A stretch of DNA of 64,000 nucleotides from Thermodesulfobacteriota bacterium (GCA_049324675.1 JBMONM010000120.1:8833-72832); one strand, 5' to 3'. Positions 22,405 to 44,418 are shown, counted from the first letter of the stretch. Made by a program: numbers and translations. Notes: generated from the letters alone by a model not told the origin.

Positions 22405-22405
22405 C

Positions 22406-23350: not shown

Positions 23351-23427
23351 TCGGCCGCCCCTCCCGCGATGCGGCGGAGCGGGATTCCGTCTCCGCACAT
23401 GAAAGGGCCATGCCGTGCGGAAAAGAC

Positions 23428-24786: not shown

Positions 24787-24802
24787 CCGCCCGGGATATT
24801 CC

Positions 24803-26206
24803 ATGATAAAGCCCGTCATTCTGTGCGGCGGCTGCGGAAGCCGCCTCTGGCCGCTCTCCCGCAACCTGTACCCGAAGCAGTTCCTGGCGCTTTTAGGCGA
24901 AAAGACCCTGTTCCAGGAGACGCTGGCCCGGGCGGCCGGGCTCCCCGGGGCCCTCGCGCCCATGACCGTGTGCAACCTCGAACACCGGTTCATCGTGGCC
25001 GAGCAGCTGCGGGGCCTGGGCCTTGAAGGGGAGATCGTGCTCGAACCGGCCGGACGCAACACCGCGCCGGCCATCGCCGTGGCCGCCCTGCGCTGCGAAA
25101 AGCGCGACCCCGTGCTTCTGGTCCTGCCGGCGGACCACCATATCGAGCCCCGGGAGGATTTCGCGCGGGCCGTGGACCAGGCCCTGCCCCTGGCCGAGGA
25201 GGGTTGGCTGGTCACCTTCGGCATCGATCCGACCCGCCCGGAGACGGGCTACGGGTACATCCGCGGCGGCCGGCCCAGGGGGGGCGGGCGGCATATCGAC
25301 GCCTTCGTGGAGAAGCCGGACCTGAAGCGGGCCGAGGCCATGCTGGCCGAGGGCGGGCATTATTGGAACAGCGGAATCTTCGTGCTCAAGCCCTCGGCCT
25401 ACCTGCGGGAGATGGAGCGGCTCCAGCCGGAGATGCTCGAGGCCTGCCGCCGAGCCGTGGCCGCCAGCAAGGCGGACCTGGATTTTATCCGCCTGGACAG
25501 GAAGGCCTTTGAGGCCTGTCCCGAGGACTCCATCGATTACGCGGTCATGGAAAAGACCGACAAGGGCGTCGTGGTGCCCATGTCCGTGCGCTGGAGCGAT
25601 CTGGGCTCGTGGCACGCGCTGTTCGAGGCCGGCCCAAAGGACGCGCACGGGAACGTGACCCATGGCGACGTGCACATCCATGACGCCGAAGGGTGCTATC
25701 TGGATTCGCGCGACAGGCTGCTGACGGCCGTGGGCGTGCGGGACCTGGTGGTGGTGGTCACGGCCGACGCCGTGCTGGTCGCGGACAAGGATGCGTCGCC
25801 CCGGGTCAAGGAGCTGGTGGCCGGGCTGCGCCGGGAGGGCCGCCCCGAGGTGGTCTCCCACCGCAAGGTCTACCGGCCGTGGGGCGCATACGAGACCACG
25901 GACCAGGCCGACCGGTTCAAGGTCAAGCGCATCACGGTCAACCCGGGCCAGATCCTGTCCCTGCAAAAGCACCACCACCGGGCCGAACACTGGATCGTGG
26001 TGCGGGGCACGGCGGCCATCGTCAACGGCGACACGGAGCTCGTGCTGCGGGAGGACCAGTCCACGTACATCCCCATCGGCAACGTGCACCGTCTGGAAAA
26101 TCCGGGCCGGATCCCCCTGGACATCATCGAGGTCCAGACCGGCTCCTACCTGGAAGAGGACGATATCGTCCGCCTGGACGACGTGTACAACCGCCTGGCC
26201 GATTGA
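24803..26206 (+). CDS. manC: Mannose-1-phosphate guanylyltransferase / mannose-6-phosphate isomerase (type II PMI-GMP)
   Basis: Trimmed to ATG 24803. Contains MIKPVILCGGCGSRLWPLSRNLYPKQF...FVEKPDLKRAEAMLAEGGHYWNSGIFV...RPWGAYETTDQADRFKVKRITVNPGQILSLQKHHHRAEHWIVVRGTA, the cupin PMI domain. Confidence 0.95.
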   Translation: MIKPVILCGGCGSRLWPLSRNLYPKQFLALLGEKTLFQETLARAAGLPGALAPMTVCNLEHRFIVAEQLRGLGLEGEIVLEPAGRNTAPAIAVAALRCEKRDPVLLVLPADHHIEPREDFARAVDQALPLAEEGWLVTFGIDPTRPETGYGYIRGGRPRGGGRHIDAFVEKPDLKRAEAMLAEGGHYWNSGIFVLKPSAYLREMERLQPEMLEACRRAVAASKADLDFIRLDRKAFEACPEDSIDYAVMEKTDKGVVVPMSVRWSDLGSWHALFEAGPKDAHGNVTHGDVHIHDAEGCYLDSRDRLLTAVGVRDLVVVVTADAVLVADKDASPRVKELVAGLRREGRPEVVSHRKVYRPWGAYETTDQADRFKVKRITVNPGQILSLQKHHHRAEHWIVVRGTAAIVNGDTELVLREDQSTYIPIGNVHRLENPGRIPLDIIEVQTGSYLEEDDIVRLDDVYNRLAD

Positions 26207-26230
26207 CCGTGCCCGCGTGACGAGGCCGTG

Positions 26231-27004
26231 ATGGCGTATTTCACCATTATCACCGCCACCCGCGACGCGGAAAGGACCCTGCCGGGCCTGCTCGCGTCCC
26301 TGGCCGCCCAGACCTGCCGGGACTTCACCCACATCGTACAGGACGGCGGCTCACGGGACGCCACGGTCGCCGTCGCCCGGGCCCACGCCGAAAGGCTCCC
26401 GGAACTGCGCCTGGAAAGCGCCCCCGACGCCGGCATCTACGACGCCTGGAACACGGCGCTTGCCGCGAACGCCGCGTCGCTGGGGGAATGGGTCCTGTTC
26501 CTGGGCGCGGACGACAGGCTGGCCGCGCCGGACACGCTTGCGCGGGCGCGGGCCCTTTTGGAGGGCCTGCCGCCGGCCGTCCGGTTCGCCAGCGGCAGGG
26601 CCCTGCTCGAAGACCGTGCCGCCGGAAGGCTGCTGGACATCTCCGGGGACGCCGCCAGGGCCCTGGCCGATCTCCCGAAACGCATGCCCGTGCCGCATAC
26701 GGCCCTTTTCCACCGCGCGTCGCTCTTCTCGTCCAGCCGCTTCGACGCCTCCTTCAGAATCGCCGGGGACTACGAGTTCGTGGCCCGGCACTGGACCGCC
26801 CGCGAGCACGGGGCGAATGTGGATCTGGTGGTCACGATCATGGGGGACGGGGGGCTCAGCGTGGACCCGGCCCACCTCCCCCTGTGCCGGGAGGAGACCA
26901 GGCGCGTGCAGCGGACCTTTTTCCCGGTGCGGCACCGGATACACGCCGCGCGGGGGGCGGCATGGCGGCTGTGGAGCCGCCTGCGCCGGCCGGACGCCGG
27001 CTGA
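26231..27004 (+). CDS. Small GT2 glycosyltransferase
   Basis: MAYFTIITATRDAERTLPGLLASLAAQTCRDFTHIVQDGGSRD...LFLGADDRL. The start is ATG 26231, or the GTG at 26228 used by the track. Confidence 0.8.
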   Translation: MAYFTIITATRDAERTLPGLLASLAAQTCRDFTHIVQDGGSRDATVAVARAHAERLPELRLESAPDAGIYDAWNTALAANAASLGEWVLFLGADDRLAAPDTLARARALLEGLPPAVRFASGRALLEDRAAGRLLDISGDAARALADLPKRMPVPHTALFHRASLFSSSRFDASFRIAGDYEFVARHWTAREHGANVDLVVTIMGDGGLSVDPAHLPLCREETRRVQRTFFPVRHRIHAARGAAWRLWSRLRRPDAG

Positions 27005-27260: not shown

Positions 27261-29807
27261 ATGACCATTTCGTCCCCAGCACATCCATCCGTCGATACTT
27301 CCCCTCAGAAAACCGCATGGCTTCCGGGATTCGCCGCCCTGCTGGCGGTGGCGGCCGTTTTCCATATCCTGGAATACCAGTATCTCCAGAATGCCTACGC
27401 GACACATATGCCCCACTACGATTCCATGGGCAGCTACATGTACATGTATGAGGTGATGAACACCCTGCATGCGCAAGGGTTTTTCCCGGCCTTGAAGCTG
27501 GCCTCGGGACATTTTCTTTCCTGGGGCATGAGTTTCTTCGCCCTCGTTTTTTCCCCGGTGCTCCGGAACACGCCGCAAAGCCTCCTCCTGTTCCATACCC
27601 TGTGCATCCTCGTTTTCATGCTGTCCGTCCACAGCGCGGCCCTGGCCCTGGGAAAGGACTGGAAACTGGGCGTGGCGGCATCCCTGATGATCTTTTTGCC
27701 GGACACGTTTTATTCATGGCAGGGAGGCCTCCACGACCTGCAACGGGACATCAGCTTCGTCGCGCTGCTCGGGGCGGCCTGTTTCCTGTTTTTCGCCGCC
27801 GTCTGGAAGCCGTCCGTCTGGAAAAGCCTTTCCTTGGGATTCGTCGCCGCCCTCTCCGTCTGGTCCCGGGACAACGGCATCTTCTGGTTCATCCTCATCT
27901 TCTGCCCCATCGTCGGGGTCTGGCTCCTGGGCCGGCTCCGGCGCCGGGACTTCGGCACCCCGCGGCGCGTTCTTGTGCCGGCCCTCCTGCCCTTCGCGGC
28001 CATGGTCCTGCCCTTTTTGCTTCTCTGTTATGCCTCGATCCGGTCGCGCATGGGCAACACCTATCTGCGCTGGGCCTTCGGCCACGACATCCTGGCCTCG
28101 CTTCGGGAGTTCTGGGATGTCCCGCTGCTGATCTTCTTCGGCCGCGTGGGGCCGCTCACCAGCCTGGACCAGGGAACCTGGGTGGCGACCCTGTCCCTTG
28201 TCGGCGGCCTGGGCGCCTGTCTCGTCGCCTTGCGGCTTTGCGCCGTGCTGCGCTTCGACCGATCCTTTCTCCTGGGCGCCCGGGGCCTGTCCGTGCTCGG
28301 CGCCGGGGTGTGGTCCCTTTTCATCACCTCCTTTCTGCTCATCGCCTATCTCAAACTGACGCCGAGCCAGTCCGGTCTGGGCTACCACAGCGTCAAGCAC
28401 ATGTTTTATACCTCGCTCCTGGGCTTCTTTTTCCTGCTTTTCTACCTTGTGACCGCTGTCGCACCCGGCCGTCGCGCGCCGTCCGGCCGGGTGCTGCTGG
28501 GAGGGCTCGGGGTTGTGTGCCTCATCCTGGCCTGGGCCGGCATTCACCGCACCCTGGCCAAAACCCCGCCGGCTGAACCGGAACATCTGCATATCGCGCA
28601 GGAACTCTCCACAACAGTCTCGATACCGGGCCGGGAAGCGTCCACCGTGGCCTTCATGTGGCATGATAAAATCAGCATAGACGCATTACGTTACTTTTCA
28701 TTGCAAAAAGGCCGCGACGCAATAAAAAAACTCTATTATCCTCATCCCTTGAACACGTCTCTTGAACTGGATTTCGCCGTCAACGCCCCGGAAAACGAGA
28801 TCCCCGCGCTTCTTCAAAGCCTTCATGAGCACACCATGGCGCGTGCCGACTATGTCGTCTGCAATGCCTCGCCCGGAGCGTATTCCACGCCGAAGCACCA
28901 TTATTTTTTCTTTCGCCACGGACAACCGGTGGTGGACTCCCTGCTGCGCGATCCCGAATTCGAAACGGTATACCGCTTCACGTTGCTCGGGCAGCCCTTC
29001 GTGGTGCTCAAGAACCTCCGCCGGTTCGCCGCGGCCCGGCCCGGGGAGGACGATCCCCCCTCTTCCGCCTCCGGACCCGGCATCCCCAGGGACATGGATA
29101 TTTTTCTGTTGATGGGGCAAAGCAACATGAGCGGCCGGGGCCGCCTGGGCGATGTTTCGCCGACCGCCGCGCCCGAGGGCGTCTGGATGTACGCCAACTC
29201 GGGACAGTGGAAGCCCGCCGCCGAGCCGGTGGACGACGCCGCGGGGCAGGTGGACGAGGTCTCCCTGGACGCAAACGCCGGCTACGGGCCGTCCCTGGCC
29301 TTCGGGATGACCCTGCGCGAGCTGACGGGCCGTCCGGTCGGCCTGGTCCCCTGCGCCAAGGGGGCCAGCGGCATCGACGCCTGGCTGCCCTCCACCTCCC
29401 GGGGGACGCTGTACGGCTCGTGCCTGGCCCGGGCCCGCGAGGCCGGGCGGCACGGCGTGGTTCGCGGCGTCCTGTGGCTGCAGGGGGAAAACGACGCCAT
29501 GCGGCAGGGTCTGGCCGAAGCATGGCCGGGGAGGTTCGAGACCATCGTCGCCGCGTTGCGCACGGATCTCGGCGACGCCGCCCTGCCGGTGGTCTTCGCC
29601 CAGCTGGGGGCCGATCCGGACGACGCCCGTTTTCGTTTCTGGGAAGCGGTGAAAAAGAGTCAGGCCGCAGTCGCCATTGCGGGCACCGATATGATTACGA
29701 CCGAGGATCTGCCGCACGACGGCGTGCACTTCACCGCCCAGGGGTATGCCCTGCTCGGCGCGCGCCTTGCCCGCGCCGCGGCCGCCCTTGGCCGGCCCGC
29801 CCAATGA
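27261..29807 (+). CDS. Fusion protein: N-terminal polytopic membrane domain, a middle soluble domain and a C-terminal SASA/CE6-type (sialate O-acetylesterase-like) SGNH domain
   Basis: 848-aa ORF. The first roughly 430 aa are mostly hydrophobic helices. From about nt 29095 the C-terminus reads DIFLLMGQSNMSGRG...GYGPSLAFG...LWLQGENDA...HDGVHFT. This matches the GQSNM / WxQGExD / DxxH blocks of the DUF303/SASA esterase family. Confidence 0.8.
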   Translation: MTISSPAHPSVDTSPQKTAWLPGFAALLAVAAVFHILEYQYLQNAYATHMPHYDSMGSYMYMYEVMNTLHAQGFFPALKLASGHFLSWGMSFFALVFSPVLRNTPQSLLLFHTLCILVFMLSVHSAALALGKDWKLGVAASLMIFLPDTFYSWQGGLHDLQRDISFVALLGAACFLFFAAVWKPSVWKSLSLGFVAALSVWSRDNGIFWFILIFCPIVGVWLLGRLRRRDFGTPRRVLVPALLPFAAMVLPFLLLCYASIRSRMGNTYLRWAFGHDILASLREFWDVPLLIFFGRVGPLTSLDQGTWVATLSLVGGLGACLVALRLCAVLRFDRSFLLGARGLSVLGAGVWSLFITSFLLIAYLKLTPSQSGLGYHSVKHMFYTSLLGFFFLLFYLVTAVAPGRRAPSGRVLLGGLGVVCLILAWAGIHRTLAKTPPAEPEHLHIAQELSTTVSIPGREASTVAFMWHDKISIDALRYFSLQKGRDAIKKLYYPHPLNTSLELDFAVNAPENEIPALLQSLHEHTMARADYVVCNASPGAYSTPKHHYFFFRHGQPVVDSLLRDPEFETVYRFTLLGQPFVVLKNLRRFAAARPGEDDPPSSASGPGIPRDMDIFLLMGQSNMSGRGRLGDVSPTAAPEGVWMYANSGQWKPAAEPVDDAAGQVDEVSLDANAGYGPSLAFGMTLRELTGRPVGLVPCAKGASGIDAWLPSTSRGTLYGSCLARAREAGRHGVVRGVLWLQGENDAMRQGLAEAWPGRFETIVAALRTDLGDAALPVVFAQLGADPDDARFRFWEAVKKSQAAVAIAGTDMITTEDLPHDGVHFTAQGYALLGARLARAAAALGRPAQ

Positions 29808-29847: not shown

Positions 29848-32001
29848 ATGAAGGTCGCTGTGTATGGGAATAACCGGGGGGCGGTGCGCATCCTCGAGTT
29901 CCTGACGAGTTTTTTGCCCGCGAGCGACCTGTTCGCCGTCGCCCCCTATTCCGAAAAGGTCTATTTCTGGGCCGACTCGGTCCTGGATTTCGCCAGAAAC
30001 CACGGCATCCGGGTCATACAGGACCCCGGGGACGCCAGCCTGAAGCGGGAGATCCTGCAGGACATGCGCCGGTTCGCCCCGGACGTCCTGTTGTCCGTCT
30101 TTTACGGCCTGTACATCGACCCCGAAATCATCGCCATCCCCTCCCGCTGCGCCATCAATTTCCACGCCTCCCTGCTGCCCAAATACCGGGGGTTCGCGCC
30201 CCTGATCTGGGCCGTCGCCAACGGGGAAAGCGAAACCGGCGTGAGCGCGCAGTTCATGAACAACCCCTACAACCAGGGCGACATCCTGATGCAGCGCCCC
30301 CTGCCCATCGGGCCGGACGACACGGGCTACAGCCTGCATAACGCGGCCACGGACCTGATCGCCCGGATGCTGCCCGAGCTGTGGGAGATGATCGAGCGCG
30401 ACGCCTTCGACCCCCGGCCCCAGGACAGTTTCGGCTCCTATTATCCCCGGGACTCCCAGCGCATAAACCAGATCAACTGGCGCTACTCGGCCTCCTCGAT
30501 CCGCAACGTCGTCCGGGCCCTGGCCCCGCCCATGCCCGGGGCATACTCCTACCTCGACGGCGGGCGGTGCATCCTGGCCCGGGTCGGACTGCGCCGGCGC
30601 GGGGCGCCGAACATGGCCCCGGGCGAGCTTTTTTTCCAGGACGACGAGGTGCTCGTGGCCACCGGCCAGGACTGTCTGGCCATCGAATCCGTGGTGGTGG
30701 ACGGGGTCGAGATGGACGGGGCCACGTTTCGCGCGCGCCACCTCGAACACCTGGAACGGCCGGCGCTGCGCAACCTGCCCGAGGATTCCGGGTTCGCGCC
30801 GGAAACCATCGCCATGGAAGGCGGGCAGCCCGTCTGCCAGAAATACATCTTCTTCGGCCTGCCCTCCCTGGGGGAGGAGGAGGAACGGGCCATGGTCGAG
30901 ACCCTGCGCTCCCAGTGGATCGGCATGGGGAAAAAGACCCTGGAGTTCGAAAACCGCTTCGCCGAATACGTGGGCAGCGGCTGGGCCCTGTCCACGAGCT
31001 CCTGCACCGCGGCCCTGCATCTGGGGTTGCTGGCCCTGGGGATCGGCCCGGGCGACGAGGTCATCACCACCCCCCTGACCTTCGTGGCCACGGCCAACGC
31101 CATCGAATACACAGGGGCCAGGCCGGTGTTCGCGGATGTCGAGCCGGACACGCTGAACCTCGATCCCGAGCGGGTCGCGGCCGCGATCACCCCGCGCACC
31201 AAGGCCATTTTGCCCGTGCATTTCGGGGGCCTTCCCGTGAACATGGAGGCCTTCGAGGCCCTGGCGCACAAGCACGGCCTGCATGTGCTGTATGACGCGG
31301 CCCATGCCGTGGGCGGCTCCTACAAGGGGGTGCGCATCGGCGGCGGCGGGCATCTGTCCTGCTTCAGCTTCTACCCCAACAAGAACCTGACCACCTGCGA
31401 AGGGGGCATGGTGACCGGCGACGACGAGTCCGTCCTCGGCGCGCTCAGGCTGCTGCGCCAGCACGGCCTGCGGGACAACGCCTGGCAACGCTACCAGACC
31501 AAGCGAATCATCCTCTACGAGGCCAGCACCCTGGGCTATAAATACAACATGACGGATCTCCAGTCGGCCATCGGCCTGGCACAGCTTGAAAAGCTGGAGG
31601 GATTCCAGAAGCGCCGGGAGGAGATCGCCCAGTATTACAACAGCGTGATCCAGGACATGGACTGCGTTGCGAGTTGCTACCAGCCGCAGCGTTACGACGG
31701 GTCCAGGCATGCCCTGCATCTCTATATCGTTCTTCTGGACATGGACAGACTCTGCACGGACCGCAACCAGATCGCGGCCGCCCTGCGGGAGGAGAACATC
31801 GGCGTGGGCATTCATTATCTTCCCGTGCACAGGCATGCCTATTACCGGGAAAAATACGCCCTTTCCCCCGCCGACTATCCGGTGGCGGACCGCGCCGGCA
31901 ACACCTGCATCACCCTTCCCACCAACCCGTCCATGAGCCAGGTCGACGCGGCCATGGTCATCAAGGCCCTGCGAAAGGTCCTCACATGGTACTCCCGATG
32001 A
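29848..32001 (+). CDS. Fusion protein: N-terminal formyltransferase (Fmt/ArnA-N-like) plus C-terminal DegT/DnrJ/EryC1 PLP sugar aminotransferase
   Basis: Trimmed from track ORF 29746..32001 to ATG 29848 (MKVAVYGNNRG). NFHASLLPKYRGFAPLIWAVANGESETGVS is the formyltransferase HxSLLPxxRG motif. The C-terminus ...EFENRFAEYVGSGWALSTSSCTAALHLGLLALGIGPGDEVITTPLTFVATANAI...FSFYPNKNLTTCEGGMV contains the DegT-family active-site Lys. Confidence 0.9.
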   Translation: MKVAVYGNNRGAVRILEFLTSFLPASDLFAVAPYSEKVYFWADSVLDFARNHGIRVIQDPGDASLKREILQDMRRFAPDVLLSVFYGLYIDPEIIAIPSRCAINFHASLLPKYRGFAPLIWAVANGESETGVSAQFMNNPYNQGDILMQRPLPIGPDDTGYSLHNAATDLIARMLPELWEMIERDAFDPRPQDSFGSYYPRDSQRINQINWRYSASSIRNVVRALAPPMPGAYSYLDGGRCILARVGLRRRGAPNMAPGELFFQDDEVLVATGQDCLAIESVVVDGVEMDGATFRARHLEHLERPALRNLPEDSGFAPETIAMEGGQPVCQKYIFFGLPSLGEEEERAMVETLRSQWIGMGKKTLEFENRFAEYVGSGWALSTSSCTAALHLGLLALGIGPGDEVITTPLTFVATANAIEYTGARPVFADVEPDTLNLDPERVAAAITPRTKAILPVHFGGLPVNMEAFEALAHKHGLHVLYDAAHAVGGSYKGVRIGGGGHLSCFSFYPNKNLTTCEGGMVTGDDESVLGALRLLRQHGLRDNAWQRYQTKRIILYEASTLGYKYNMTDLQSAIGLAQLEKLEGFQKRREEIAQYYNSVIQDMDCVASCYQPQRYDGSRHALHLYIVLLDMDRLCTDRNQIAAALREENIGVGIHYLPVHRHAYYREKYALSPADYPVADRAGNTCITLPTNPSMSQVDAAMVIKALRKVLTWYSR

Positions 32002-32735
32002 ACGACGCCGCGCCCATGCCCATCGAGGAGGTTTCCGTCATCATCCTGGCCTACAACGACATGGAGGTCGTGGAGGAGAGCGTCCGCTACGTCCATGCCA
32101 CCCTCGGCCGGCTGGCCCGGCGCTTCGAGGTCATCGTGGTCGAGGACTGCAGCACGGACGGCACCCGGGAGATCGTCCGGGCCCTGGAACAGGAGCTTCC
32201 CGAGGTGCGGGCCGTTTATCACGCGAAAAACAGGGGCGTGGGCGACGGCCTGCGGGACGGCTTCCAGGCCGCCCGGTACGACCTGGTCTGCACCAACTGC
32301 GCCGACCTGCCGTTCGACGTGGCGGACCTGGCCCGGGCGGTCCCCGCCATGCTGTCGCAGCAGGCCGACGTCTGCGTCATGGTCCGGCACGACCGCTCGG
32401 CCAATTCCGCGTTCCGCAAGCTGACCTCCTACGTCAACTATCTGATCATACGCCTGCTCTTCAATACCCCGGTGCATGATTACAACTTCGTTCAAATGTA
32501 CAAGCGCGCCGTCTGCCAGTCGATCCCGCTACAGGCAAAAGATGTGTTCGTTCCTCCGGAGCTCATCATAAAGGCCTATCGCGCCGGCCACAAGATCGTC
32601 GAGTTTCGAACGACTTTTCATCCGAGGAAGGCCGGCAGGAGCAAGTACGGCCATCCCAAGCACTTCATCCGGACGTTTCGGGATCAGATTCTTTTTTGGA
32701 CCCGCCTGCGCCTCAAAAAGAGTCCCCATGCCTGA
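31998..32735 (+). CDS. DPM1/ArnC-like GT2 (polyprenyl-phosphate glycosyltransferase candidate), soluble form
   Basis: The ATG at 31998 forms an ATGA overlap with the upstream stop. Contains VSVIILAYNDMEVVEESV...VIVVEDCSTDGTREIV...HAKNRGVGDGLRDGF...CADLPFD...PELIIKAYRAGHKIVEF. Confidence 0.8.
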   Translation: MNDAAPMPIEEVSVIILAYNDMEVVEESVRYVHATLGRLARRFEVIVVEDCSTDGTREIVRALEQELPEVRAVYHAKNRGVGDGLRDGFQAARYDLVCTNCADLPFDVADLARAVPAMLSQQADVCVMVRHDRSANSAFRKLTSYVNYLIIRLLFNTPVHDYNFVQMYKRAVCQSIPLQAKDVFVPPELIIKAYRAGHKIVEFRTTFHPRKAGRSKYGHPKHFIRTFRDQILFWTRLRLKKSPHA

Positions 32736-33492
32736 GCCGAATTACAACGAAAACGACATCGCCTTCCTCAACGCCATAGAAGAGCACCACTTCTGGTACA
32801 GGACCCGTCGGCATCTGCTGAGAACCCTGCTCCGGGACGTTTCCCCGCAGCTTCCCGCCGCGCCGGCGATTCTCGACCTCGGCTGCGGCAACGGCTCCAT
32901 GGTTTCGACCATCCGGGAATACGGGACCTACGTGGGCATCGAATACGCCCGGGAGGCCGCGGCCAACTGCCGGGCCAAGGGCGTCCCGGCCCTGGTCGGC
33001 GACGCCCGGCGCATTCCCCTGCGCACGGATTCCATGGATGTGGTCACGATTCTCGACCTGCTGGAACACGTCGACGACGACCGGGCCGTGCTCGAGGAAT
33101 GCTCCCGGGTGCTCAGGCCCGGCGGCTTCCTGCTGGTCATGGTCCCGGCCTTCATGGCCTTGTGGACCTCCTTCGACGAATATTCCTTCCACAAGCGGCG
33201 GTATTCCCGGGGCCGGCTGTCGCGGTTGCTGCGGGACTCCGGTTTCGTTCCGGCCCGAAAGGGCTACATGTTTTCCTTTCTCTTTCCCGTCCTGTTGTTC
33301 AACAGCCTCCTGGAGCGGATCAGGCCCGGAAAGCCGGATCGCGGACAGGGGTGGCGCCGGCGCCTGGCCCCGCCGCGCCCCGGGGTCAACGGATTGCTTT
33401 GCACGCTGGGAAGACTGGAGACCATGTTCATGCGCCGCGGCCTGGTCCCCTTCGGGACCACCTTCCTGGCCATATGCCGCAACGTCAAATAA
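32728..33492 (+). CDS. Class I SAM methyltransferase (Methyltransf_11/23-like)
   Basis: 254-aa ORF with EEHHFWYRTRR...ILDLGCGNGSM...VTILDLLEHVDDDRAVLEECSRVLRPGGFLLVMVP. Paralog of 39687..40442. Confidence 0.85.
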   Translation: MPEPNYNENDIAFLNAIEEHHFWYRTRRHLLRTLLRDVSPQLPAAPAILDLGCGNGSMVSTIREYGTYVGIEYAREAAANCRAKGVPALVGDARRIPLRTDSMDVVTILDLLEHVDDDRAVLEECSRVLRPGGFLLVMVPAFMALWTSFDEYSFHKRRYSRGRLSRLLRDSGFVPARKGYMFSFLFPVLLFNSLLERIRPGKPDRGQGWRRRLAPPRPGVNGLLCTLGRLETMFMRRGLVPFGTTFLAICRNVK

Positions 33493-33504: not shown

Positions 33505-34449
33505 ATGGACACGCCGTACACCTTCATGCGCGACAAGGACCGGGAGTTTCCCCCGATGGTCATCGTGGACTTCACCAACGTCTGCAACCTGCGGTGCGTG
33601 CACTGCGCCCATCCGGTGATCAAGAAGGAGGCCGGCTACAAGCCGGCGTTCATGAAAAAGGAGCTTTTCAAAAAGATCGTGGATGAAACGGCCGGCCGCG
33701 ACATCCTGCTCATGCGCATCGCCAGCGACGGGGAGAGCCTGCTGCACCCGGACTTTTTCGAGATGATGCACATGGCCAAGGACGCGGGCGTGGCCCCGGT
33801 CAACCTCACGACCAACGGCATGCTGCTCACGCCGGAGACCGGCCGCAGGCTGGTCGACTGCGGCCTGGACATCGTGGACGTGAGCATCGACGCCCACAGC
33901 AAGGACATCTACGAACAGATCCGCCGGGGCGGAAGCTACGACACGGTGGTGGCGAACACCCTTGGGCTGGTTCAGGCGCGCAACGAGGCCGGCAGCTCCA
34001 TGCGCATCTTCGTGAGCATCATCCGCCAGCCCCTCAACGCCCACCAGATCGAGGACTTCAAGGCCTTCTGGGAGCCCAGGGTGGATTTCGTCCTGGTCCG
34101 CAACCTGTGCGACGAGGTCGGCCTGGTGGACATCGAGCCCGTGGAGTCCGTGGCCGTGCCCGAGGTCCGCTGGCCCTGTCCGCAGTTCTGGAAACGCATC
34201 ACCATCACCCATTCCGGCGACGTCCGGTACTGCGTGGAGGACTGGCGCAACATCACGGTCATCGGCAACGTCGGGCGCCAATCCATTGCGGAGATCTGGC
34301 AGGGGGAAACCTACCGGCGGCTGCGGGAACGCCAGCTCAAGGGCGACTACCGGGGCATGGCCCTGTGCGAGGACTGCAAGGACTGGGCAACGGCGCCATG
34401 GGACTTCGGATACGACCGGATCGTCAGGGAGACGACGCGCCCGAAATGA
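33505..34449 (+). CDS. Radical SAM protein with a C-terminal Cys-rich SPASM/twitch-like region
   Basis: 314-aa ORF. VDFTNVCNLRCVHCAH is the CxxxCxxC cluster. GESLLHPDF and TTNG are also present. The C-terminal cysteines are WPCPQFW...VRYCVEDW...CEDCKDW. Confidence 0.9.
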   Translation: MDTPYTFMRDKDREFPPMVIVDFTNVCNLRCVHCAHPVIKKEAGYKPAFMKKELFKKIVDETAGRDILLMRIASDGESLLHPDFFEMMHMAKDAGVAPVNLTTNGMLLTPETGRRLVDCGLDIVDVSIDAHSKDIYEQIRRGGSYDTVVANTLGLVQARNEAGSSMRIFVSIIRQPLNAHQIEDFKAFWEPRVDFVLVRNLCDEVGLVDIEPVESVAVPEVRWPCPQFWKRITITHSGDVRYCVEDWRNITVIGNVGRQSIAEIWQGETYRRLRERQLKGDYRGMALCEDCKDWATAPWDFGYDRIVRETTRPK

Positions 34450-35174
34450 AAAACCCCGGTCAAAAGGCCGGCACCCTGGCCATCATCCAGCCGAGCTTCG
34501 TCCCCTGGCGCGGCTACTTCGACATCATCCGCCGTTCGGATGTCTTCGTCTTCTACGACGACGTGCAATACGAGAAAAACTCCTGGAGAAACCGGAACAA
34601 GATCAAGACGGCGAAGGGCTGGCAGTGGATCACCGTGCCGGTCCTGACCAAGGGCCGCCTGACCCAGGCGATATGCGAGGCCCGGATAAACGACGCGGAG
34701 CCCTGGAGGAAGAAGGTCCTTGGCTCCATCTCCCAGGCCTATTCCAAGGCCCCGTTCTTCAAACAATATTTCCCCCTCGTGGCCGGAAGCGTCACCGACG
34801 GCGGGGAAAGCCTGTCCGATCTGTGCATCGGACTGACCCGGGAGGTGTGCGCCCGCCTCGGCATCCGGACCGCCTTTCTCCGGTCAAGCTCCCTGGGGAT
34901 CGGCACGGAGCTTCGGGGCGCGGATCGCGTCCTGGCCATCTGCAAGGCGCTCGGGGCCGCGCGCTACGTCTCCGGCCCCCGGGCCAGAAGCTACCTCGGG
35001 GACGGGGCGGATTTCGAGGCGGCGGGCGTGGCCCTGGAATACATGACCTACGACTATCCGGAATATCCCCAGTTGCACGGACCCTTCCTTCCGGACATGT
35101 CCATCCTGGATCTGCTTTTCAACTGCGGCGACCAGGCCCCGCGCTACATCTGGGACCGGCCGGACCGGCCTTGA
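34446..35174 (+). CDS. WbqC-family protein (LPS-cluster-associated, function unknown)
   Basis: The ATG at 34446 overlaps the upstream stop (ATGA). LAIIQPSFVPWRGYFDIIRRSDVFVFYDDVQYEKNSWRNRNKIKT..GWQWITVPV matches my memory of the WbqC-like family N-terminus. Confidence 0.75.
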   Translation: MKNPGQKAGTLAIIQPSFVPWRGYFDIIRRSDVFVFYDDVQYEKNSWRNRNKIKTAKGWQWITVPVLTKGRLTQAICEARINDAEPWRKKVLGSISQAYSKAPFFKQYFPLVAGSVTDGGESLSDLCIGLTREVCARLGIRTAFLRSSSLGIGTELRGADRVLAICKALGAARYVSGPRARSYLGDGADFEAAGVALEYMTYDYPEYPQLHGPFLPDMSILDLLFNCGDQAPRYIWDRPDRP

Positions 35175-35210: not shown

Positions 35211-35849
35211 TCAGGACGCAAGGGACAGCCGCATGTCGAACAGGGTCCGCTGTTTCTTGACGGTCTTCAATCCATGGCGGCCCGGAACCTCGGCCATGAT
35301 GCGCCGGCAGTCCCGCAACCACCCGCTGTAGTCATCCCACTCGAACAACAAAATGACCCGGCGATAGCGCAAGGTGCGCGAGACGCCGTGCAGCACGCGC
35401 AGGGTCAGAAAGTCGGCCAGCCGGCGGAAAAGACCGGGCCAGGGCTCGGAAATATGGATGACGCCGCCGGGTCCGAGCACCCGGACGAGTTCGGGAAAAA
35501 GCCGCCCGACATCGATGTGGTGCAGGAAGTCGGCCAGGTACAGGGCGTCGAAGGCGGCGTCGGCAAAGGGCAGCCGGAAGGCGTCGGCGCAGGCCCGGGC
35601 CGACCCGGAGGCGCGCGGCAGCAGCTCCATGGAGATGTCGATGCCGAACACCCGCTGGTAGCCGAGTTCGGCAAAGGCCCGCTGATTGAGGCCTTCCCCG
35701 CAGCCGACCTCCAGAATCCGGGCGCTTTTCGGGATGCCGAAGGAACGGATCGTGGCCTTGCGCGGCCCGATGGCCTTGTCCACGGAAACGAAGGCCTCGT
35801 TCCAGTCCTCGATGGTGAGCCCGTGGGTGTTTCGTGTGGAATCAGTCAT
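35211..35849 (-). CDS. Class I SAM methyltransferase
   Basis: 212-aa ORF with ILEVGCGEGLN...GIDIS...FDALYLADFLHHI...VRVLGPGGVIHISEP. Confidence 0.85.
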   Translation of the reverse strand: MTDSTRNTHGLTIEDWNEAFVSVDKAIGPRKATIRSFGIPKSARILEVGCGEGLNQRAFAELGYQRVFGIDISMELLPRASGSARACADAFRLPFADAAFDALYLADFLHHIDVGRLFPELVRVLGPGGVIHISEPWPGLFRRLADFLTLRVLHGVSRTLRYRRVILLFEWDDYSGWLRDCRRIMAEVPGRHGLKTVKKQRTLFDMRLSLAS

Positions 35850-36915
35850 GTCCCTTGAACGCTATGGTAATGACGTTGGGTCGTTCGGAAAAGGAGTCCT
35901 TGAAGCCCAGGGAGTTGTCGCAGTACCGACAGCTGGAGAACTGCCCGCGGTTTTTTAAAATCCCCCGGCGAAAGGCGTTGAACCCGGGGGAGCCCCAGCC
36001 GTCGCGGACCGTGGCCCCCTTCTCCCGCAGGGTCGCCATGGTCGGGGGATAGAGCCAGTCGTAGCAGCACGGCAAGAGCCGCTGGTCCGAGGTCAGGGCC
36101 GGCGCGACCCACAGGCCGTGGCAGTGGTTTTTCAGGGAGTGCGGTTCGTATTTGGCCGTGATCTCGATCTCATCCGGGGTGGGGGTGCGCCTGGGGGTGC
36201 CTTCGTACACGTAGTCGGTATTGACGTAGCGCGGATGCAGGTCGACCTGCATGGCCTCGGCCATCTTTTTGATGTCGGGCAATTCGTGCCTGTTCTCCGG
36301 GGTCAGCAGGGCCCGGAAGGCCAGCCGCGGGGTTTTCGATCCCGTGCGCTCCTTGGCGGCGTTGATCTTGCGCACGTTCTCCCGGACATTGTCCAGATTG
36401 CCGCAGCGATGGTATTTGCCGTAGTTGTCCTGGGTCGCGCCGGAAATGGAGATATACAGGGTGTCCAGCCCCGAGGCCACGACCTGCTCCCCCCAGTCCT
36501 CCGGGGTCTTGTAGCTGCCGTTGGTGCTGGTCCAGACCGCGATACGGCTGTCCGCGGCATGGCGGATCATCTTGAAGATGTCCGGATGCAGGAACGGTTC
36601 GCCGCTCATTTGCAGGATCAAAAACATCAGGGAGTCTTTGACGCTGTCCACATGGCGCCTGTAGTCCTCAAGCGGCATGGCCACATGCTCCACGTGGGCC
36701 TGCTTGGCCGGAACCCAGCACCCGGCGCAGCGCAGATTGCAGTAGTTCACGGGTTCGACCCACAACGCCGCCGGGCCGTAAGGCGCCCTGGGGATGCGCA
36801 AAAACGCGCAGGCCATGTTGGCGGACAGCTTGAAAAGCTTGCCCGGCGTGACCTGCCCCTTGAACAAGGCGGTGACCATGAAGCGCGAGAAATAGGTCAG
36901 ACTTTTCCAATTCAC
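35842..36915 (-). CDS. Radical SAM protein
   Basis: Track ORF 35842..37044 trimmed. VEPVNYCNLRCAGCWV is the CxxxCxxC cluster. SGEPFLHPD and TSTNG are present, and the C-terminus has Cys pairs (LLPCCYDW, SSCRYCDN). The preferred start is GTG 36915, preceded by GAGGG and 13 nt after the upstream stop. Alternatives are ATG 36879 or ATG 36972. Confidence 0.8.
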   Translation of the reverse strand: MNWKSLTYFSRFMVTALFKGQVTPGKLFKLSANMACAFLRIPRAPYGPAALWVEPVNYCNLRCAGCWVPAKQAHVEHVAMPLEDYRRHVDSVKDSLMFLILQMSGEPFLHPDIFKMIRHAADSRIAVWTSTNGSYKTPEDWGEQVVASGLDTLYISISGATQDNYGKYHRCGNLDNVRENVRKINAAKERTGSKTPRLAFRALLTPENRHELPDIKKMAEAMQVDLHPRYVNTDYVYEGTPRRTPTPDEIEITAKYEPHSLKNHCHGLWVAPALTSDQRLLPCCYDWLYPPTMATLREKGATVRDGWGSPGFNAFRRGILKNRGQFSSCRYCDNSLGFKDSFSERPNVITIAFKGHD

Positions 36916-36928
36916 GGTCGAGGTGCCC

Positions 36929-38524
36929 TCATGCCGGCTTGGCAGTGTTTTTGTCCATGACCACAACCACATACGTGAACAGGTCAAAAGGGGTGTGCGA
37001 GGCCCGCCTGAGGGAAAACCCGTGCCGGCCGCACAAGGCTTCAACCTTCTTTCTGCTGGTGAAAAGCGTCACTTCACCAGGATACAAAGCGACCTTCCTG
37101 CGCCGCGCCAGACCGAGCAGGGTTTCCAGACAGACCGCGCAGGCCTTGTACCAGCCGTAACGCGGCGGCCACAAAAGCAGGCAGCGCCCCCCCGGCTTGA
37201 GCACCCTGCGAAATTCCCCGAGAACGACGTCCAGTTCCGGCTCGGTGAAATGTTCCATGACCCCCAGGTTCCAGATGCCGTCGAGACTGCCGGCGGCAAA
37301 GGGAAGCCTGTACATGTCCCCCTGCACCGCGGCGTCGATGGCCGGCATGGTCCTGGCCCGCACGAGCGGCGGAAAGGAAAAATCCAGGCAGATCAAGGTG
37401 CGTCCCCCGGCCGGCAGCCGGGCGCTGGTCTCGGACGACCCCGAGCCCATTTCGACGAAAATCCCTTGTTCGGGAAAATACCGGGCGAAAAGCCGCCGCA
37501 GTCCCCGGGCGATGATATTCGTGCGGATGAAGGACAGGGCCGTGTGGGCCGGGGCCGAGGCGAAATGGGAGGTCCAGAAGCCGTCCCAGGCCTCGGCCGT
37601 ATTGGCCGGGACCGGTTCCCCGGCCGCGTTGCCGTCCGGCCGGGGCGGCCGGGTCCGCGTCCCGGCATTGATCCAGGCCACGGCGGCCAGGGCCAGGGCG
37701 GCCCAGGTCGCCAGGCCGCTTCCGATATTCCCGGAAAGGACCAGGCCGGCGGCGAAAAACGGCAGCGTGAGCCCCATGGCCTTGTCGTGGATCAGATAGA
37801 GGTCCCGGATGACGGCAAAGGCCACGGAGGCGGCGAACACCAGGACGGCGGGCGTCCAGGCCGGGGAAACGCCCAGGGAGGCCACGCCGAACGCCCCGAG
37901 GACGGCGGCCAGGGCGCACAGTCCCACCCGCAGGGGGCGCAGGGCCGGTTCCGGGTCCAGATACTGCATGATCCCGTAGGCCAGGGCCAGGCACAGGACC
38001 CCGCCGGCCAGCGGCGTGAAGGCCAGCGGGATCAGCCAGCAGCAGGCCGCGAGCCGGCCGTGGGGCAGAAATTCGAGCAGCGGCAGGGCGGCCGCGGCAA
38101 GGCCGGACGACAGCGGCATCCCGCCGGCGACCATGCCTCCCAGCACGGCCAGGGCGTTGAGCGTCGCGCCGACCAGCCCGGCGGGAAGCCGGCCCGGAGA
38201 GGGCCGCGGCGGGGGGGATGCGCCCGCGCCGAGGATGCGCCCGGCGAGAAGCCGGGCATTGCGGTCGTTGGGCGTGGCCAGGCAGCGGTCGTTCTCGGCG
38301 GCGGCCGTGGCCGTGTCGCCCCGGCGATAGAAATCGAACTCGTCCCCGGGAACGGACAGTTCATGGGCCTGTCCCTGAAACTCCCAGCGGACCAGATACC
38401 CCTCCGGCGTGGCGGTGACGGCCAGGGACCGCGCCGCCTCGGCGTACCGTCCGGGGGAGGCCGCTTCCCGGCAGGCGTGCAGATGCCTGAGCAGGAGGTG
38501 GCGCAGGGCCTTTTCCTTTCTCAC
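36929..38524 (-). CDS. Membrane protein with a C-terminal class I SAM methyltransferase domain
   Basis: Track ORF 36929..38611 trimmed to GTG 38524. That GTG forms a GTGA overlap with the upstream stop and is preceded by GGAGGGG. A soluble N-terminal region of roughly 100 aa comes first. Several hydrophobic helices follow (LPAGLVGATLNALAVLGGMVAGG...VLVFAASVAFAVI...). The methyltransferase domain is last: FVEMGSGSSETS...GVMEHFTEPELDVVLGEFRRVLKPGGRCLLLWP. Confidence 0.75.
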   Translation of the reverse strand: MRKEKALRHLLLRHLHACREAASPGRYAEAARSLAVTATPEGYLVRWEFQGQAHELSVPGDEFDFYRRGDTATAAAENDRCLATPNDRNARLLAGRILGAGASPPPRPSPGRLPAGLVGATLNALAVLGGMVAGGMPLSSGLAAAALPLLEFLPHGRLAACCWLIPLAFTPLAGGVLCLALAYGIMQYLDPEPALRPLRVGLCALAAVLGAFGVASLGVSPAWTPAVLVFAASVAFAVIRDLYLIHDKAMGLTLPFFAAGLVLSGNIGSGLATWAALALAAVAWINAGTRTRPPRPDGNAAGEPVPANTAEAWDGFWTSHFASAPAHTALSFIRTNIIARGLRRLFARYFPEQGIFVEMGSGSSETSARLPAGGRTLICLDFSFPPLVRARTMPAIDAAVQGDMYRLPFAAGSLDGIWNLGVMEHFTEPELDVVLGEFRRVLKPGGRCLLLWPPRYGWYKACAVCLETLLGLARRRKVALYPGEVTLFTSRKKVEALCGRHGFSLRRASHTPFDLFTYVVVVMDKNTAKPA

Positions 38525-41428: not shown

Positions 41429-41533
41429 TATCCAGCTCCTGACGCGATATCTTTGATGCAAGCGGCGCAGGCATGCTTCTTTTCCTGTCCACCATCCCCG
41501 GTCATCCCTCGGCCGCGTGCCCCCTGAAGGCGT

Positions 41534-44297: not shown

Positions 44298-44317
44298 GCG
44301 ACCCCTTCTTTTTTCGT

Positions 44318-44328: not shown

Positions 44329-44368
44329 CATTCTGCATACAAAACCGGACGGATACCGCAAGGGTTTT

Positions 44369-44396: not shown

Positions 44397-44418
44397 TTTC
44401 ATTTTTTTGACGGGTGGT

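Follow-up and report, generated by a model that had tools for sequence, protein, structure and literature searches.

A formyltransferase–aminotransferase fusion heads a conserved gene cassette with a probable role in charging a lipid carrier with a modified amino sugar

What is the task of a protein that joins a formyltransferase to an aminotransferase in one chain and is encoded directly ahead of a glycosyltransferase? The question is raised by a locus within a gene cluster of O-antigen type from a Thermodesulfobacteriota MAG, of which we analysed a 64,000-nucleotide stretch of DNA, hereafter the window (Table 1). A first-pass annotation of this DNA had offered two answers: a cytoplasmic pathway in which GDP-mannose genes feed the synthesis of an N-formylperosamine-type sugar, and an Arn-style pathway in which the formylated amino sugar is handed to polyprenyl phosphate.

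Table 1. Features of the locus, with positions counted from the first nucleotide of the window.
Feature	Position	Strand	Length	Remarks
gmd	21253–22404	+		TIGR01472, 591 bits, above cut-off
fcl	22406–23350	+		487 bits, cut-off 500
manB	about 23428–24786	+		Pfam domains
manC	about 24767–26206	+		Pfam domains
Ordinary cytoplasmic glycosyltransferase (GT2), WcaE-like	26228–27004	+	258 aa	between manC and p848
p848, membrane/SASA protein	27261–29807	+	848 aa	immediately upstream of the fusion
Formyltransferase–aminotransferase (FT–AT) fusion	29848–32001	+	717 aa	single open frame; Formyl_trans_N, Formyl_trans_C and DegT
FT-like half	29848–30729	+		fusion residues 1–294; Formyl_trans_N and Formyl_trans_C subdomains
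DegT-family PLP aminotransferase (AT) half	30865–31974	+		fusion residues 340–709; Pfam 421 bits
GT2, ArnC/GtrB/DPM1-like, TM-less	31986–32735	+	249 aa (start at ATG 31986) or 245 aa (start at ATG 31998)	
Class-I SAM methyltransferase	32728–33492	+	254 aa	Pfam Methyltransf_11/25/23; overlaps the GT2 stop
Radical-SAM protein with SPASM/twitch auxiliary-cluster domain	33505–34449	+	314 aa	Pfam Radical_SAM and SPASM
WbqC-family protein	34446–35174	+	242 aa	Pfam WbqC, 266 bits; last cassette gene

The fusion is a genuine, rare single protein. Its ATG is preceded at 9 nt by a GGGGAG sequence, and its one open frame encodes three Pfam domains, namely Formyl_trans_N (residues 65–176, 82.2 bits; gathering cut-off 26.1), Formyl_trans_C (residues 207–294, 43.3 bits; gathering cut-off 21.1) and DegT_DnrJ_EryC1 (E 7e-126), in keeping with the single polypeptide of the first-pass annotation. 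A frameshift or misassembly that joins two adjacent genes would also yield such a frame, and separate FT and AT genes do occur in nature, since they are adjacent and in different frames at two loci of actinomycete MAGs (L037, L048). Against an artefact, an independent Logan contig carries the identical ORF, GC3 is uniformly high (0.87) over its entire length, the 95%-identical fusion cluster has eight member sequences, and eight more homologues (37–44% identity) are colinear over the FT/AT junction as single chains aligned end to end. The independent contig, the cluster and the colinear distant homologues refute a sequencing frameshift, and we assign an artefact of any kind a negligible probability. 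The architecture occurs elsewhere in about ten distinct full-length homologues (37–95% identity), one of them archaeal and aligned in a single HSP (L003). The earlier reader was aware of no characterised single-chain protein of this kind, and our literature searches likewise turned up none with the FT–AT architecture.

The FT half contains the HxSLLPxxRG motif reported for it, in the segment NFHASLLPKYRG (fusion residues 104–115). Here N104-F-H106-ASLLPKYRG aligns to N102-L-H104-GSLLPKYRG of ArnA, with both the N-x-H pair (codons 30157–30165) and the SLLPxxRG folate loop present. The catalytic aspartate of the Asn/His/Asp triad, which we take to be D140 in ArnA, D146 in FMT and D144 in GART, is replaced: in a residue alignment to ArnA its position is occupied by Asn142 (codon 30271–30273, context YNQGD). 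N-formylation by this half is doubtful for that reason, and so is the formamido product that had been expected of the locus. Full conservation of N104, H106 and the SLLPKYRG loop, together with the presence of D145 three residues past Asn142, means that residual activity is possible. The aspartate is likewise replaced in the 95%-identical homologue (P0001) and missing from P0003, P0014 and P0247, of which P0014 has also lost the Asn and His residues and adjoins a GNAT; it is kept in P0004–P0008, L003, L037, L048 and all arnBCA-type FTs. The best match of the FT half in the PDB is the FT domain of ArnA (107 bits versus 83 for WbkC).

In the AT half the PLP lysine is K512 (codon 31381–31383, motif SFYPNKN), which is invariant throughout the fusion family and aligns to the Schiff-base lysine of ArnB in SFHAIKN. 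Contrary to what a perosamine pathway would lead one to expect, the domain scores higher with the UDP-sugar enzyme ArnB (291 bits; 41% identity to the Salmonella protein) than with the characterised perosamine synthase Per (235 bits; 37% identity), and it groups with the ArnB type. The NCBIfam models PseC (354 bits) and ArnB (348 bits; NF008658, equivalog cut-off 631) both match under their cut-offs. In a neighbour-joining tree without bootstrap, for which a root on Per was chosen, the fusion ATs group with stand-alone ATs linked to WbqC and radical-SAM genes; this group lies beside the ATs of the arnB-arnC-arnA type, and the clade of the window AT is separate from them. Judged by these similarities, the fusion is an ArnA-type formyltransferase-fold domain joined to an ArnB-like nucleotide-sugar 4-aminotransferase.

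The GT2 that follows is translationally coupled to the fusion. The junction reads ...TCC CGA TGA, and with ATG 31998 as the start the stop and start codons overlap as ATGA, just as the first-pass annotation had it; a second in-frame start at ATG 31986 (MVLPMND...) gives an overlap of 16 nt instead of 4, is the gene caller's pick on the identical Logan contig and resembles the beginning of an 81%-identical homologue (MVLAMN). The fusion is followed directly by a GT2 in the window as well as in L083, L084 and L086. No TM segment is predicted in the window GT2, so it has no C-terminal TM hairpin as found in ArnC and GtrB, and the hairpin is present in its homologues of L083 and L084 and absent from those of L082, L086 and L089. 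Soluble members of the polyprenyl-phosphate GT2 family exist, DPM1 and Ppm1 among them. Pfam recognises the GT2 domain with 78 bits, and of the NCBIfam models only ArnC, PgfS and AglJ match past the N-terminal half of GT-A; the latter two each cover more than 200 residues, and ArnC positions 4–213 align to residues 8–220 with 70 bits, far under the equivalog cut-off of 529. In the PDB, ArnC (60 bits) scores above DPMS (37 bits), which agrees with the earlier description of a soluble DPM1/ArnC-like enzyme. Alignment with GtrB-like proteins shows no variation at D50, S52, D54, D103, R130 and D161, which represent the DxSxD and xAD motifs, the catalytic aspartate and the arginine of the family, and with these acidic and arginine residues kept the enzyme looks functional, a candidate polyprenyl-phosphate glycosyltransferase.

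Because each of the three parts has its highest-scoring solved structure in an Arn enzyme, we prefer the Arn-style, lipid-carrier answer to the cytoplasmic one; the AT–GT2 pairing, moreover, recurs in homologous loci. We put the chances at about even that the locus encodes an Arn-like or Gtr-like route of side-chain decoration with delivery of an amino sugar via a lipid carrier. Counting against it are the low ArnC score and missing TM hairpin of the GT2, the Asn of the FT half, and the lack in the window of genes for ArnT/PMT_2, an ArnD-type deformylase, an ArnE/F-like flippase, Ugd and an ArnA-type decarboxylase.

The cytoplasmic answer draws on the GDP-mannose genes. The gmd-fcl-manB-manC set for the supply of GDP-mannose and GDP-fucose heads the same-strand gene string in which the fusion lies, with gmd 7.4 kb upstream of it. 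The first-pass annotation had placed these genes just upstream; they do belong to the same string, but two genes, a GT2 and p848, intervene before the fusion. A link is plausible because gmd is the operon's only 4,6-dehydratase, making it a possible source of GDP-4-keto-6-deoxymannose for the AT. The stronger claim that these genes feed the fusion did not hold up as a conserved feature: gmd is missing from the vicinity of most fusion or cassette loci, RmlB/RmlA-like genes take its place in one variant, and in the window gmd forms a pair with fcl as in the standard GDP-fucose route. The fusion might nonetheless aminate and formylate the Gmd product to a GDP-formamido sugar that cytoplasmic glycosyltransferases use directly, a proposal we regard as unlikely. 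Under this proposal the pathway would end in an O-antigen exported by an ABC transporter, as in Brucella or Yersinia O:9, with the downstream GT2 as an ordinary chain builder. Among the genes of the window is one for a Wzt ABC-transporter ATPase that includes a Wzt_C domain, and gmd homologues lie close to related cassettes in L001 and L158/L160; yet fcl, directly after gmd, consumes the Gmd product. Per ranks second among the structural relatives of the AT, and WbkC also matches the FT half, but both are outscored by ArnB and ArnA; the loss of the catalytic aspartate and a coupled GT2 that resembles polyprenyl-phosphate transferases past the N-terminal half of GT-A likewise speak against this pathway.

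The lipid-carrier reading can be examined further in the genes downstream, which the first-pass annotation had passed over and which together with the fusion and the GT2 form a conserved, uncharacterised and translationally coupled cassette of five genes in the order AT(±FT), GT2, methyltransferase, SPASM radical-SAM protein and WbqC, headed by the fusion and with a polytopic membrane protein upstream. The order is identical in L086 (77% identity) and in L089 (AT 61% identical), where the AT lacks an FT domain and again overlaps the GT2; in L001, L090/L091 and L082 the genes are permuted. The methyltransferase, for which no specific PDB relative was found, has the same place in the order in L086 and L089, and in L084 and L085 a methyltransferase likewise follows. 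The radical-SAM gene is kept next to the AT in L086, L089, L001 and L090, and WbqC adjoins the fusion or the AT in L082, L086, L089, L090 and L001. Other cassettes include RmlA/B-like or other SDR genes, some of them 4,6-dehydratase-like. The WbqC family has more than 7000 members, and an AF2 model of the window protein (pLDDT 93.7) gave no significant fold match in the PDB. Of 46 metagenomic WbqC loci, 35 have a GtrB/ArnC-like GT2 within 5 kb and 32 have a DegT gene, which ties WbqC to lipid-carrier GT2s. The logic of the cassette is mirrored in the window by a convergent minus-strand operon with genes for a membrane protein, a GtrB-like GT2, a methyltransferase and a radical-SAM protein. Two more GtrB/PgfS-like genes are located at 40439–41461 and 44607–46514, one of which adjoins a gene for a 724-aa polytopic protein.

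The radical-SAM protein suggests a different origin for the keto group. It has the motif C27-x3-C31-x2-C34 and the auxiliary cysteines C225, C243, C288 and C291, and all seven except C291 are invariant in a five-sequence alignment. Its best PDB match is BtrN (47 bits), ahead of BlsE (31 bits). BtrN supplies the ketone to a DegT-family aminotransferase in butirosin biosynthesis. The FT half could then be a pseudo-enzyme or scaffold, and the lipid carrier would deliver an amino sugar that is free or N-methylated, with its ketone made by the BtrN-like enzyme and not by an NAD-dependent SDR; if true, the cassette would in this way replace the dehydrogenase step of ArnA by an oxygen-sensitive one. 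Asn142 and the other homologues without the aspartate, including P0014 beside its GNAT gene, are consistent with this idea, as is the compact cassette of L089, which has neither an FT domain nor an SDR. The cysteine spacing is similar to that of BtrN, but the match covers the auxiliary-cluster domain alone; radical-SAM genes are rare near WbqC (within 5 kb at 1 of the 46 loci), other variants carry the 4,6-dehydratase-like SDRs, and the conserved folate loop and N-x-H pair, with D145 nearby, argue for an FT half that may still be active. A pseudo-enzyme FT half together with a radical-SAM-derived ketone seems to us improbable.

At the upstream end, the first-pass annotation had expected delivery by one of the GT-C-like membrane proteins but had not pointed to the one directly next to the fusion. 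Every fusion locus with enough flanking sequence has an adjoining multi-TM protein (500–630 aa) or PMT_2 protein. In the window this is p848, in which at least nine predicted TM segments (residues 1–430) are followed by some 170 soluble residues and, at the C-terminus, a SASA domain, an SGNH-type carbohydrate esterase (residues 612–840; Pfam 181 bits). Its N-terminus has no Pfam, PDB-sequence or profile match, and profile comparison with PMT_2 and neighbouring membrane proteins revealed no similarity. The family is very small, with five clusters. A 50%-identical homologue without SASA (P0123) lies upstream of an IS-disrupted FT fragment, and another member (P0125) overlaps a 344-aa GT2; these pairings of the N-terminal family, with the FT fragment and with a GT2, belong to L087 and L088, respectively. 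The AF2 model of p848 is poor (pLDDT 55), and its sole full-length Foldseek match, to STT3A, is weak (E 0.016, TMq 0.43). Together with topology and gene context, this match makes p848 a candidate for the periplasmic GT-C-like transferase of the cassette.

The domains, the conserved residues and the recurrent gene order described above are observed; from them we infer substrates, a lipid acceptor and a direction of flow for the preferred lipid-carrier route, as well as roles for the radical-SAM enzyme, methyltransferase, WbqC and p848. The DegT half would aminate a nucleotide-activated keto-sugar using PLP on K512; the best candidate in the operon for this substrate is GDP-4-keto-6-deoxymannose from Gmd, the alternative being a ketone from the radical-SAM enzyme, as BtrN provides for BtrS. 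The amine might next be capped or modified, by formylation, provided that the FT half has kept its activity, or alternatively by the neighbouring methyltransferase through N- or O-methylation. The GT2 would then move the sugar onto polyprenyl phosphate at the inner membrane face and, after flipping, p848 would place it on a periplasmic acceptor, probably an O-antigen-like polysaccharide encoded by the surrounding genes.

Another reading sees here the canonical Arn system itself, which makes UDP-L-Ara4N to modify lipid A and confer resistance to polymyxin/CAMP, with nothing but the domain fusion different. Solved structures of its components ArnB, ArnA-FT and ArnC do give the top matches, and related loci with the order arnB-arnC-arnA exist in many phyla. 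We consider this very improbable, given that the 64 kb hold no Ugd, ArnA-type decarboxylase, ArnD-type deformylase, ArnT/PMT_2 or ArnE/F-like flippase, that every NCBIfam equivalog cut-off is missed by a wide margin, that the cassette lies inside a cluster of O-antigen type, and that the AT clade stands apart from arnBCA-type ATs.

The Arn system (PmrHFIJKLM) of E. coli and Salmonella is similar to the cassette in its DegT 4-aminotransferase, its Fmt-type formyltransferase with a C-terminal subdomain and its polyprenyl-phosphate-loading GT2, and the gene order fits cytoplasmic synthesis of an amino sugar with lipid-carrier delivery to a polytopic transferase. In the cassette, however, the formyltransferase is joined to the aminotransferase (steps 2 and 3), whereas its partner in ArnA is the decarboxylase (steps 1 and 3); the GT2 is without TM helices, the FT half has Asn for the catalytic Asp, and a methyltransferase, a SPASM radical-SAM enzyme and WbqC, absent from Arn operons, are added. 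The Gmd/Per/WbkC pathway of Brucella and Yersinia enterocolitica O:9 shares with the locus a gmd in the operon and would share the sequential action of a DegT aminotransferase and an N-formyltransferase on a 4-keto-6-deoxy sugar. Per and WbkC are separate proteins, the solved WbkC chains (261 residues) are shorter than the two-subdomain FT half, and the N-formylperosamine pathway includes no lipid-carrier GT2, radical-SAM enzyme or WbqC. Butirosin biosynthesis offers a parallel in BtrN and BtrS, a twitch/SPASM radical-SAM enzyme encoded with a DegT aminotransferase, although the substrate of BtrN is an aminocyclitol and not a nucleotide- or lipid-linked sugar. Lastly, in three-component glycan decoration GtrA/GtrB/GtrC use unmodified UDP-glucose, whereas the window GT2 is coupled to sugar-modifying enzymes and the window contains no GtrA-like flippase; what the cassette would have in common with the Gtr system, PgfS, Ppm1 and PpgS is a GT2 whose product is a polyprenyl-phosphate sugar, and a polytopic protein, encoded next to it, that uses this sugar outside the cytoplasm.

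The fusion protein, which joins a formyltransferase-like (FT) half to a DegT-family PLP aminotransferase (AT) half, is encoded in a single frame of a window of about 67% G+C, in which coding frames were picked by third-position GC. GGGGAG lies 9 nt before its ATG, and the preceding gene has its stop at 29807. Pfam assigns Formyl_trans_N to residues 65–176 (82 bits), Formyl_trans_C to residues 207–294 (43 bits) and DegT_DnrJ_EryC1 to residues 340–709 (421 bits), and the FT motif pointed out in the first-pass annotation, NFHASLLPKYRG, occupies residues 104–115. The ATGA overlap reported there between the fusion stop and the following GT2 gene is present (CGATGA at the junction, 4 nt, GT2 start at ATG 31998). 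An in-frame start at ATG 31986 (MVLPMND) is equally possible; it is the gene caller's choice on an identical independent contig, and an 81%-identical GT2 orthologue begins MVLAMN. The GT2 is soluble as described, with zero predicted transmembrane (TM) segments, and gmd, fcl, manB and manC lie where they had been placed, manC being separated from the fusion by genes for a WcaE-like GT2 and an 848-aa protein, p848.

The single-chain FT–AT is genuine and rare. A frameshift artefact joining two neighbouring genes, the alternative raised beforehand, is excluded by independent assemblies and colinear homologues: an identical protein with the same neighbour genes occurs on a Logan contig, and a search of 5.8 billion proteins recovered full-length colinear homologues of the same Pfam architecture (P0001, 95% identical; P0003–P0008, 39–44%; P0014, 37%) together with the N-terminally truncated P0002 (77%). 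On a Thaumarchaeota MAG contig (L003) the fusion aligns as one 680-residue HSP. A second search, against 1.84 billion sequences representing clusters at 50% identity, yielded 97,671 matches; of the top 150, only four are FT–AT proteins, namely P0007, P0014, P0247 and, in truncated form, P0002. No characterised FT–DegT single chain was found in a literature search, an absence that is not proof. In two actinomycete MAGs (L037, L048) FT and AT are neighbouring separate genes behind a GtrB-like GT2, which is likely the pre-fusion state. The same ArnB-like AT clade also occurs fused behind an extended SDR in six representatives and duplicated as AT–AT in two, the proteins being P0254, P0258, P0261, P0280, P0302, P0319, P0256 and P0333; it is unusually prone to fusing with pathway partners. 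An ArnA-DH-like label for the SDR halves is not warranted, as they are generic GalE/4,6-dehydratase-like. A 77%-identical orthologue of the fusion is apparently broken by a DDE transposase inside the FT domain, shortly before the position equivalent to Asp140 of ArnA, and its halves lie on separate contigs (L087, 2371–4319; L086, 1–1832), both from JGI sample 3300048576.

The fusion heads a tightly packed five-gene cassette that was absent from the first-pass annotation and comprises FT–AT, GT2, a methyltransferase (MT), a radical-SAM/SPASM enzyme (rSAM) and a WbqC-family protein. PDB matches to the methyltransferase are generic only and give it no specific identity. Locus L086 has the identical gene order with a 77%-identical fusion, and L089 has the identical order with a 61%-identical AT without an FT domain, the AT and GT2 genes again overlapping. 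Permuted versions are found in a Pseudomonadota MAG (L001: MT–AT–AT–rSAM–WbqC, then GT4, B12-rSAM and Gmd) and in Anaerolineae (L090/L091: WbqC–AT–rSAM–MT, with sulfotransferases directly after the methyltransferase), and in L082 the gene immediately before the fusion is that for WbqC, and the neighbourhood also encodes two soluble GT2s and two PMT_2 proteins. A polytopic membrane protein (500–630 aa) or a PMT_2 protein adjoins every fusion locus with enough flank. In the window this protein is p848, in which at least nine TM segments are followed by a soluble domain and, at the C-terminus, a SASA esterase domain; the family of its N-terminal part has very few members, one of which precedes the IS-disrupted FT copy and another of which overlaps a 344-aa GT2. 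A GT-C fold for p848 could not be supported: Pfam, NCBIfam, PDB profile searches and hhalign against the neighbouring membrane proteins gave no GT-C likeness, and its AF2 model (pLDDT 55; only full-length Foldseek match STT3A, E 0.016) is too poor for a reliable fold search.

Coordinates of the fusion, its cassette and other features of the window
Feature	Coordinates	Strand	Remarks
ABC-transporter-type O-antigen machinery	1441–12630	minus	same stretch also has TylF-, FkbM- and Methyltransf_24-type methyltransferases
Wzt with Wzt_C carbohydrate-binding domain	7622–9094	minus	part of the above
Transketolase-like gene	9875–11773	minus	77%-identical copy in L086, next to genes for a CTP_transf_3 cytidylyltransferase and an SDR
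Fused PUA_2/ATP-sulfurylase/APS-kinase gene	14734–17040	+	flanks cluster
gmd, fcl, manB, manC	21253–26206		
WcaE-like GT2	26228–27004		
p848 gene	27261–29807		
Fusion (FT–AT)	29848–32001	+	ATG to TGA, 717 aa
GT2	31986 or 31998–32735		cassette
Class-I methyltransferase	32728–33492		cassette
Radical-SAM/SPASM enzyme	33505–34449		cassette
WbqC-family protein	34446–35174		cassette
Convergent operon	35211–43708	minus	724-aa polytopic protein (weak YfhO match), GtrB/PgfS-like GT2 with TM hairpin, then MT–rSAM–MT–rSAM–MT (middle MT a 531-aa methyltransferase-containing protein)
Phage-integrase-family gene	43698–44402	minus	234 aa, in polysaccharide cluster; overlaps start of 724-aa protein gene
GtrB/PgfS-like GT2 (C-terminal)	44607–46514	minus	635 aa; TM hairpin; N-terminal ~300 aa without family match
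Second amino-sugar set	46258–51187	minus	SDR, DegT, GFO_IDH_MocA, hexapeptide acetyltransferase
Second DegT aminotransferase	within 46258–47991	minus	
Extended SDR (SDR1), GalE/UXS-like	47538–48584	minus	
GFO_IDH_MocA oxidoreductase	49689–51113	minus	
Hexapeptide acetyltransferase	50699–51187	minus	
PAPS-reductase-family gene	62030–62857	+	flanks cluster

Among solved structures, the best match of the AT half is ArnB (291 bits; next relevant, Caulobacter perosamine synthase, 235 bits), that of the FT half the ArnA formyltransferase domain (107 bits; Brucella WbkC, 83 bits) and that of the GT2 ArnC (60 bits; Pyrococcus DPMS, 37 bits). NCBIfam agrees, yet all scores fall far under the equivalog cut-offs (ArnB 348 against 631, PseC 354 against 423.5, ArnA 138 against 777, ArnC 70 against 529). 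Only with the polyprenyl-phosphate transferases ArnC, PgfS and AglJ do the NCBIfam matches of the GT2 reach past the N-terminal half of its GT-A domain, and the GT2 residues D50, D54, D103, R130 and D161 are common to GtrB-like proteins. In a neighbour-joining tree of AT domains, built without bootstrap support and rooted on Per by choice, the fusion ATs form one clade with stand-alone ATs adjoining WbqC and radical-SAM genes, and this clade neighbours ATs from loci with the order arnB–arnC–arnA. The window's AT shares 41% identity with Salmonella ArnB and 37% with Per. By the refutation criterion set out in the first-pass annotation, the perosamine-type aminotransferase of one of its two readings is thus disfavoured, though only modestly: bit scores, identities and the tree lean towards ArnB but, as guides to UDP or GDP specificity read from sequence, fall short of decisive.

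The FT half departs from ArnA at a catalytic position. ArnA, like FMT (N108/H110/D146) and GAR transformylase (N106/H108/D144), has an Asn/His/Asp triad, of which Asp140 is the third member. Residue-level alignment to E. coli ArnA places N104 and H106 of the fusion correctly, but Asn142 (context YNQGD) at the position of Asp140. That position holds Asn in P0001, Arg in P0003, Tyr in P0247 and Gly in P0014, which has lost the Asn and His as well; it is Asp in P0004–P0008, L003, L037, L048 and all nine arnBCA-type FTs. The P0014 locus (L083; GCA_021772705.1, genes 2355–6098) carries a GNAT acetyltransferase gene after its GT2, which suggests N-acetylation in place of N-formylation with a dead FT domain retained. 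In part of the fusion family, then, the domain appears to persist while its canonical formyltransferase chemistry is being lost, and a 'formyltransferase' label from motif-based annotation can mislead. In the window's protein a residual activity is possible, given the nearby D145 and an intact folate loop. With Asn142 in place of the catalytic Asp, the formamido sugar predicted at first pass is therefore no safe inference.

As to which sugar is made, the canonical UDP-Ara4N route is unlikely, because Ugd, an ArnA-type decarboxylase, ArnD, ArnT/PMT_2 and ArnE/F-like genes are missing from the 64-kb window, where no small flippase-like ORFs were found either. SDR1, considered as an Arn-type decarboxylase, is ambiguous between GalE-like and UXS-like and is part of a separate minus-strand amino-sugar set; it was rejected as the partner enzyme of the FT–AT protein. 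A 4,6-dehydratase-type SDR adjoins WbqC or AT in L113, L114, L124 and L168, and L158 reads GT2–WbqC–MT–AT–RmlB-like–RmlA-like with Gmd 1.5 kb upstream; the occurrence of such SDRs in several variants suggests that the products are 4-amino-4,6-dideoxyhexoses, the nucleotide varying among cassette variants. Since Gmd is the sole 4,6-dehydratase in the window's operon, GDP-4-keto-6-deoxymannose is the best single candidate keto-sugar, although Fcl accompanies Gmd and no dehydratase is part of the compact L089 cassette. Alternatively, the ketone could come from the radical-SAM enzyme, whose auxiliary-cluster domain matches BtrN best and has similar Cys spacing; BtrN oxidises an alcohol to a ketone for a DegT-family aminotransferase in butirosin synthesis. 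We put a GDP-derived 6-deoxyhexose slightly below an even chance, the rest being divided between a ketone that the radical-SAM enzyme makes on a different sugar and further possibilities.

The WbqC family (PF08889) is large, with more than 7000 matches, and merits its own study. No function for it was found in the searchable literature and no sequence match in the PDB; its AF2 model (pLDDT 93.7) has no significant Foldseek match to solved structures, the top matches being HUP-like pantothenate synthetases and photolyases at a TM score of ~0.3. Of 80 metagenomic WbqC loci fetched (L092–L171), 46 had 3 kb or more of flank, and in these we counted neighbours within 5 kb. A GtrB/ArnC-like GT2 is present in about three quarters (35/46) and a DegT aminotransferase in about 70% (32/46), which links WbqC in general to the making of polyprenyl-phosphate sugars and the amination of sugars, and supports a lipid-carrier reading of the window's cassette. 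Methyltransferase genes are near WbqC in 12 loci, FT in four and a radical-SAM gene in one; the radical-SAM partner is peculiar to the window's sub-branch.

The surrounding cluster is of the ABC-transporter type (Wzt with Wzt_C), is rich in methyltransferase genes and also carries genes for sulfate activation; its glycan may be sulfated. In the convergent minus-strand operon the logic of the cassette recurs without an AT, and the repeated pairing of methyltransferase and radical-SAM types suggests joint action on lipid-linked or nucleotide sugars. The adjoining phage-integrase-family gene may mark a point of recombination or shuffling, and the second amino-sugar set looks WbpB/E/D-like.

What the analysis shows is confined to the domains present, the residue patterns and the conserved order of genes; every substrate, and the direction in which the route runs, is inferred. 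The DegT half would aminate a keto-sugar nucleotide; the amine would be capped, with a formyl group should the FT half retain activity, or the sugar would be methylated; the soluble GT2 would move the sugar onto polyprenyl phosphate; and, after flipping, p848 would pass it to the polysaccharide of the surrounding cluster. Such an Arn-like or Gtr-like decoration route is the likeliest mechanism, at about even odds. The first-pass observation holds up, its interpretation only in part: of its two readings the Arn-style lipid-carrier route is favoured by the Arn-ranked parts and the WbqC link, perosamine is disfavoured and the formamido group doubtful. A more far-reaching reading, which we consider improbable as a whole, is that AT(±FT)–GT2–MT–rSAM–WbqC constitutes an undescribed and phylogenetically wide pathway of anaerobic bacteria and archaea for a lipid-carrier-linked modified amino sugar, in which a BtrN-like radical-SAM enzyme would replace an NAD-dependent dehydrogenase in making the ketone for an ArnB-like AT, and WbqC would act as a hitherto unrecognised enzyme in the metabolism of polyprenyl-phosphate sugars. 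In that case the fusion would serve as a natural 'Rosetta stone' of the physical coupling between the ArnA FT domain and ArnB.

Resistance to polymyxin and antimicrobial peptides arises mainly through Arn-type pathways. ArnA joins two non-consecutive steps, which raises the question of why it does so and of whether it channels substrate through ArnB. In the fusion, evolution has physically linked the steps of an FT fold and an ArnB-like aminotransferase; it is relevant here because a recent ArnA study modelled an ArnA–ArnB complex but did not succeed in isolating a stable one (PMC12650200), and it offers a tractable single-chain system for channelling studies. With its WbqC link, the conserved cassette may well represent a new family of surface-glycan modifications that depend on a lipid carrier in anaerobes and archaea. 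Compared with the Arn pathway, it uses known folds in the same kind of pathway, but differs in the fusion partner of its FT and in its extra conserved enzymes, and does without the Arn-specific decarboxylase, deformylase, ArnT and flippase.
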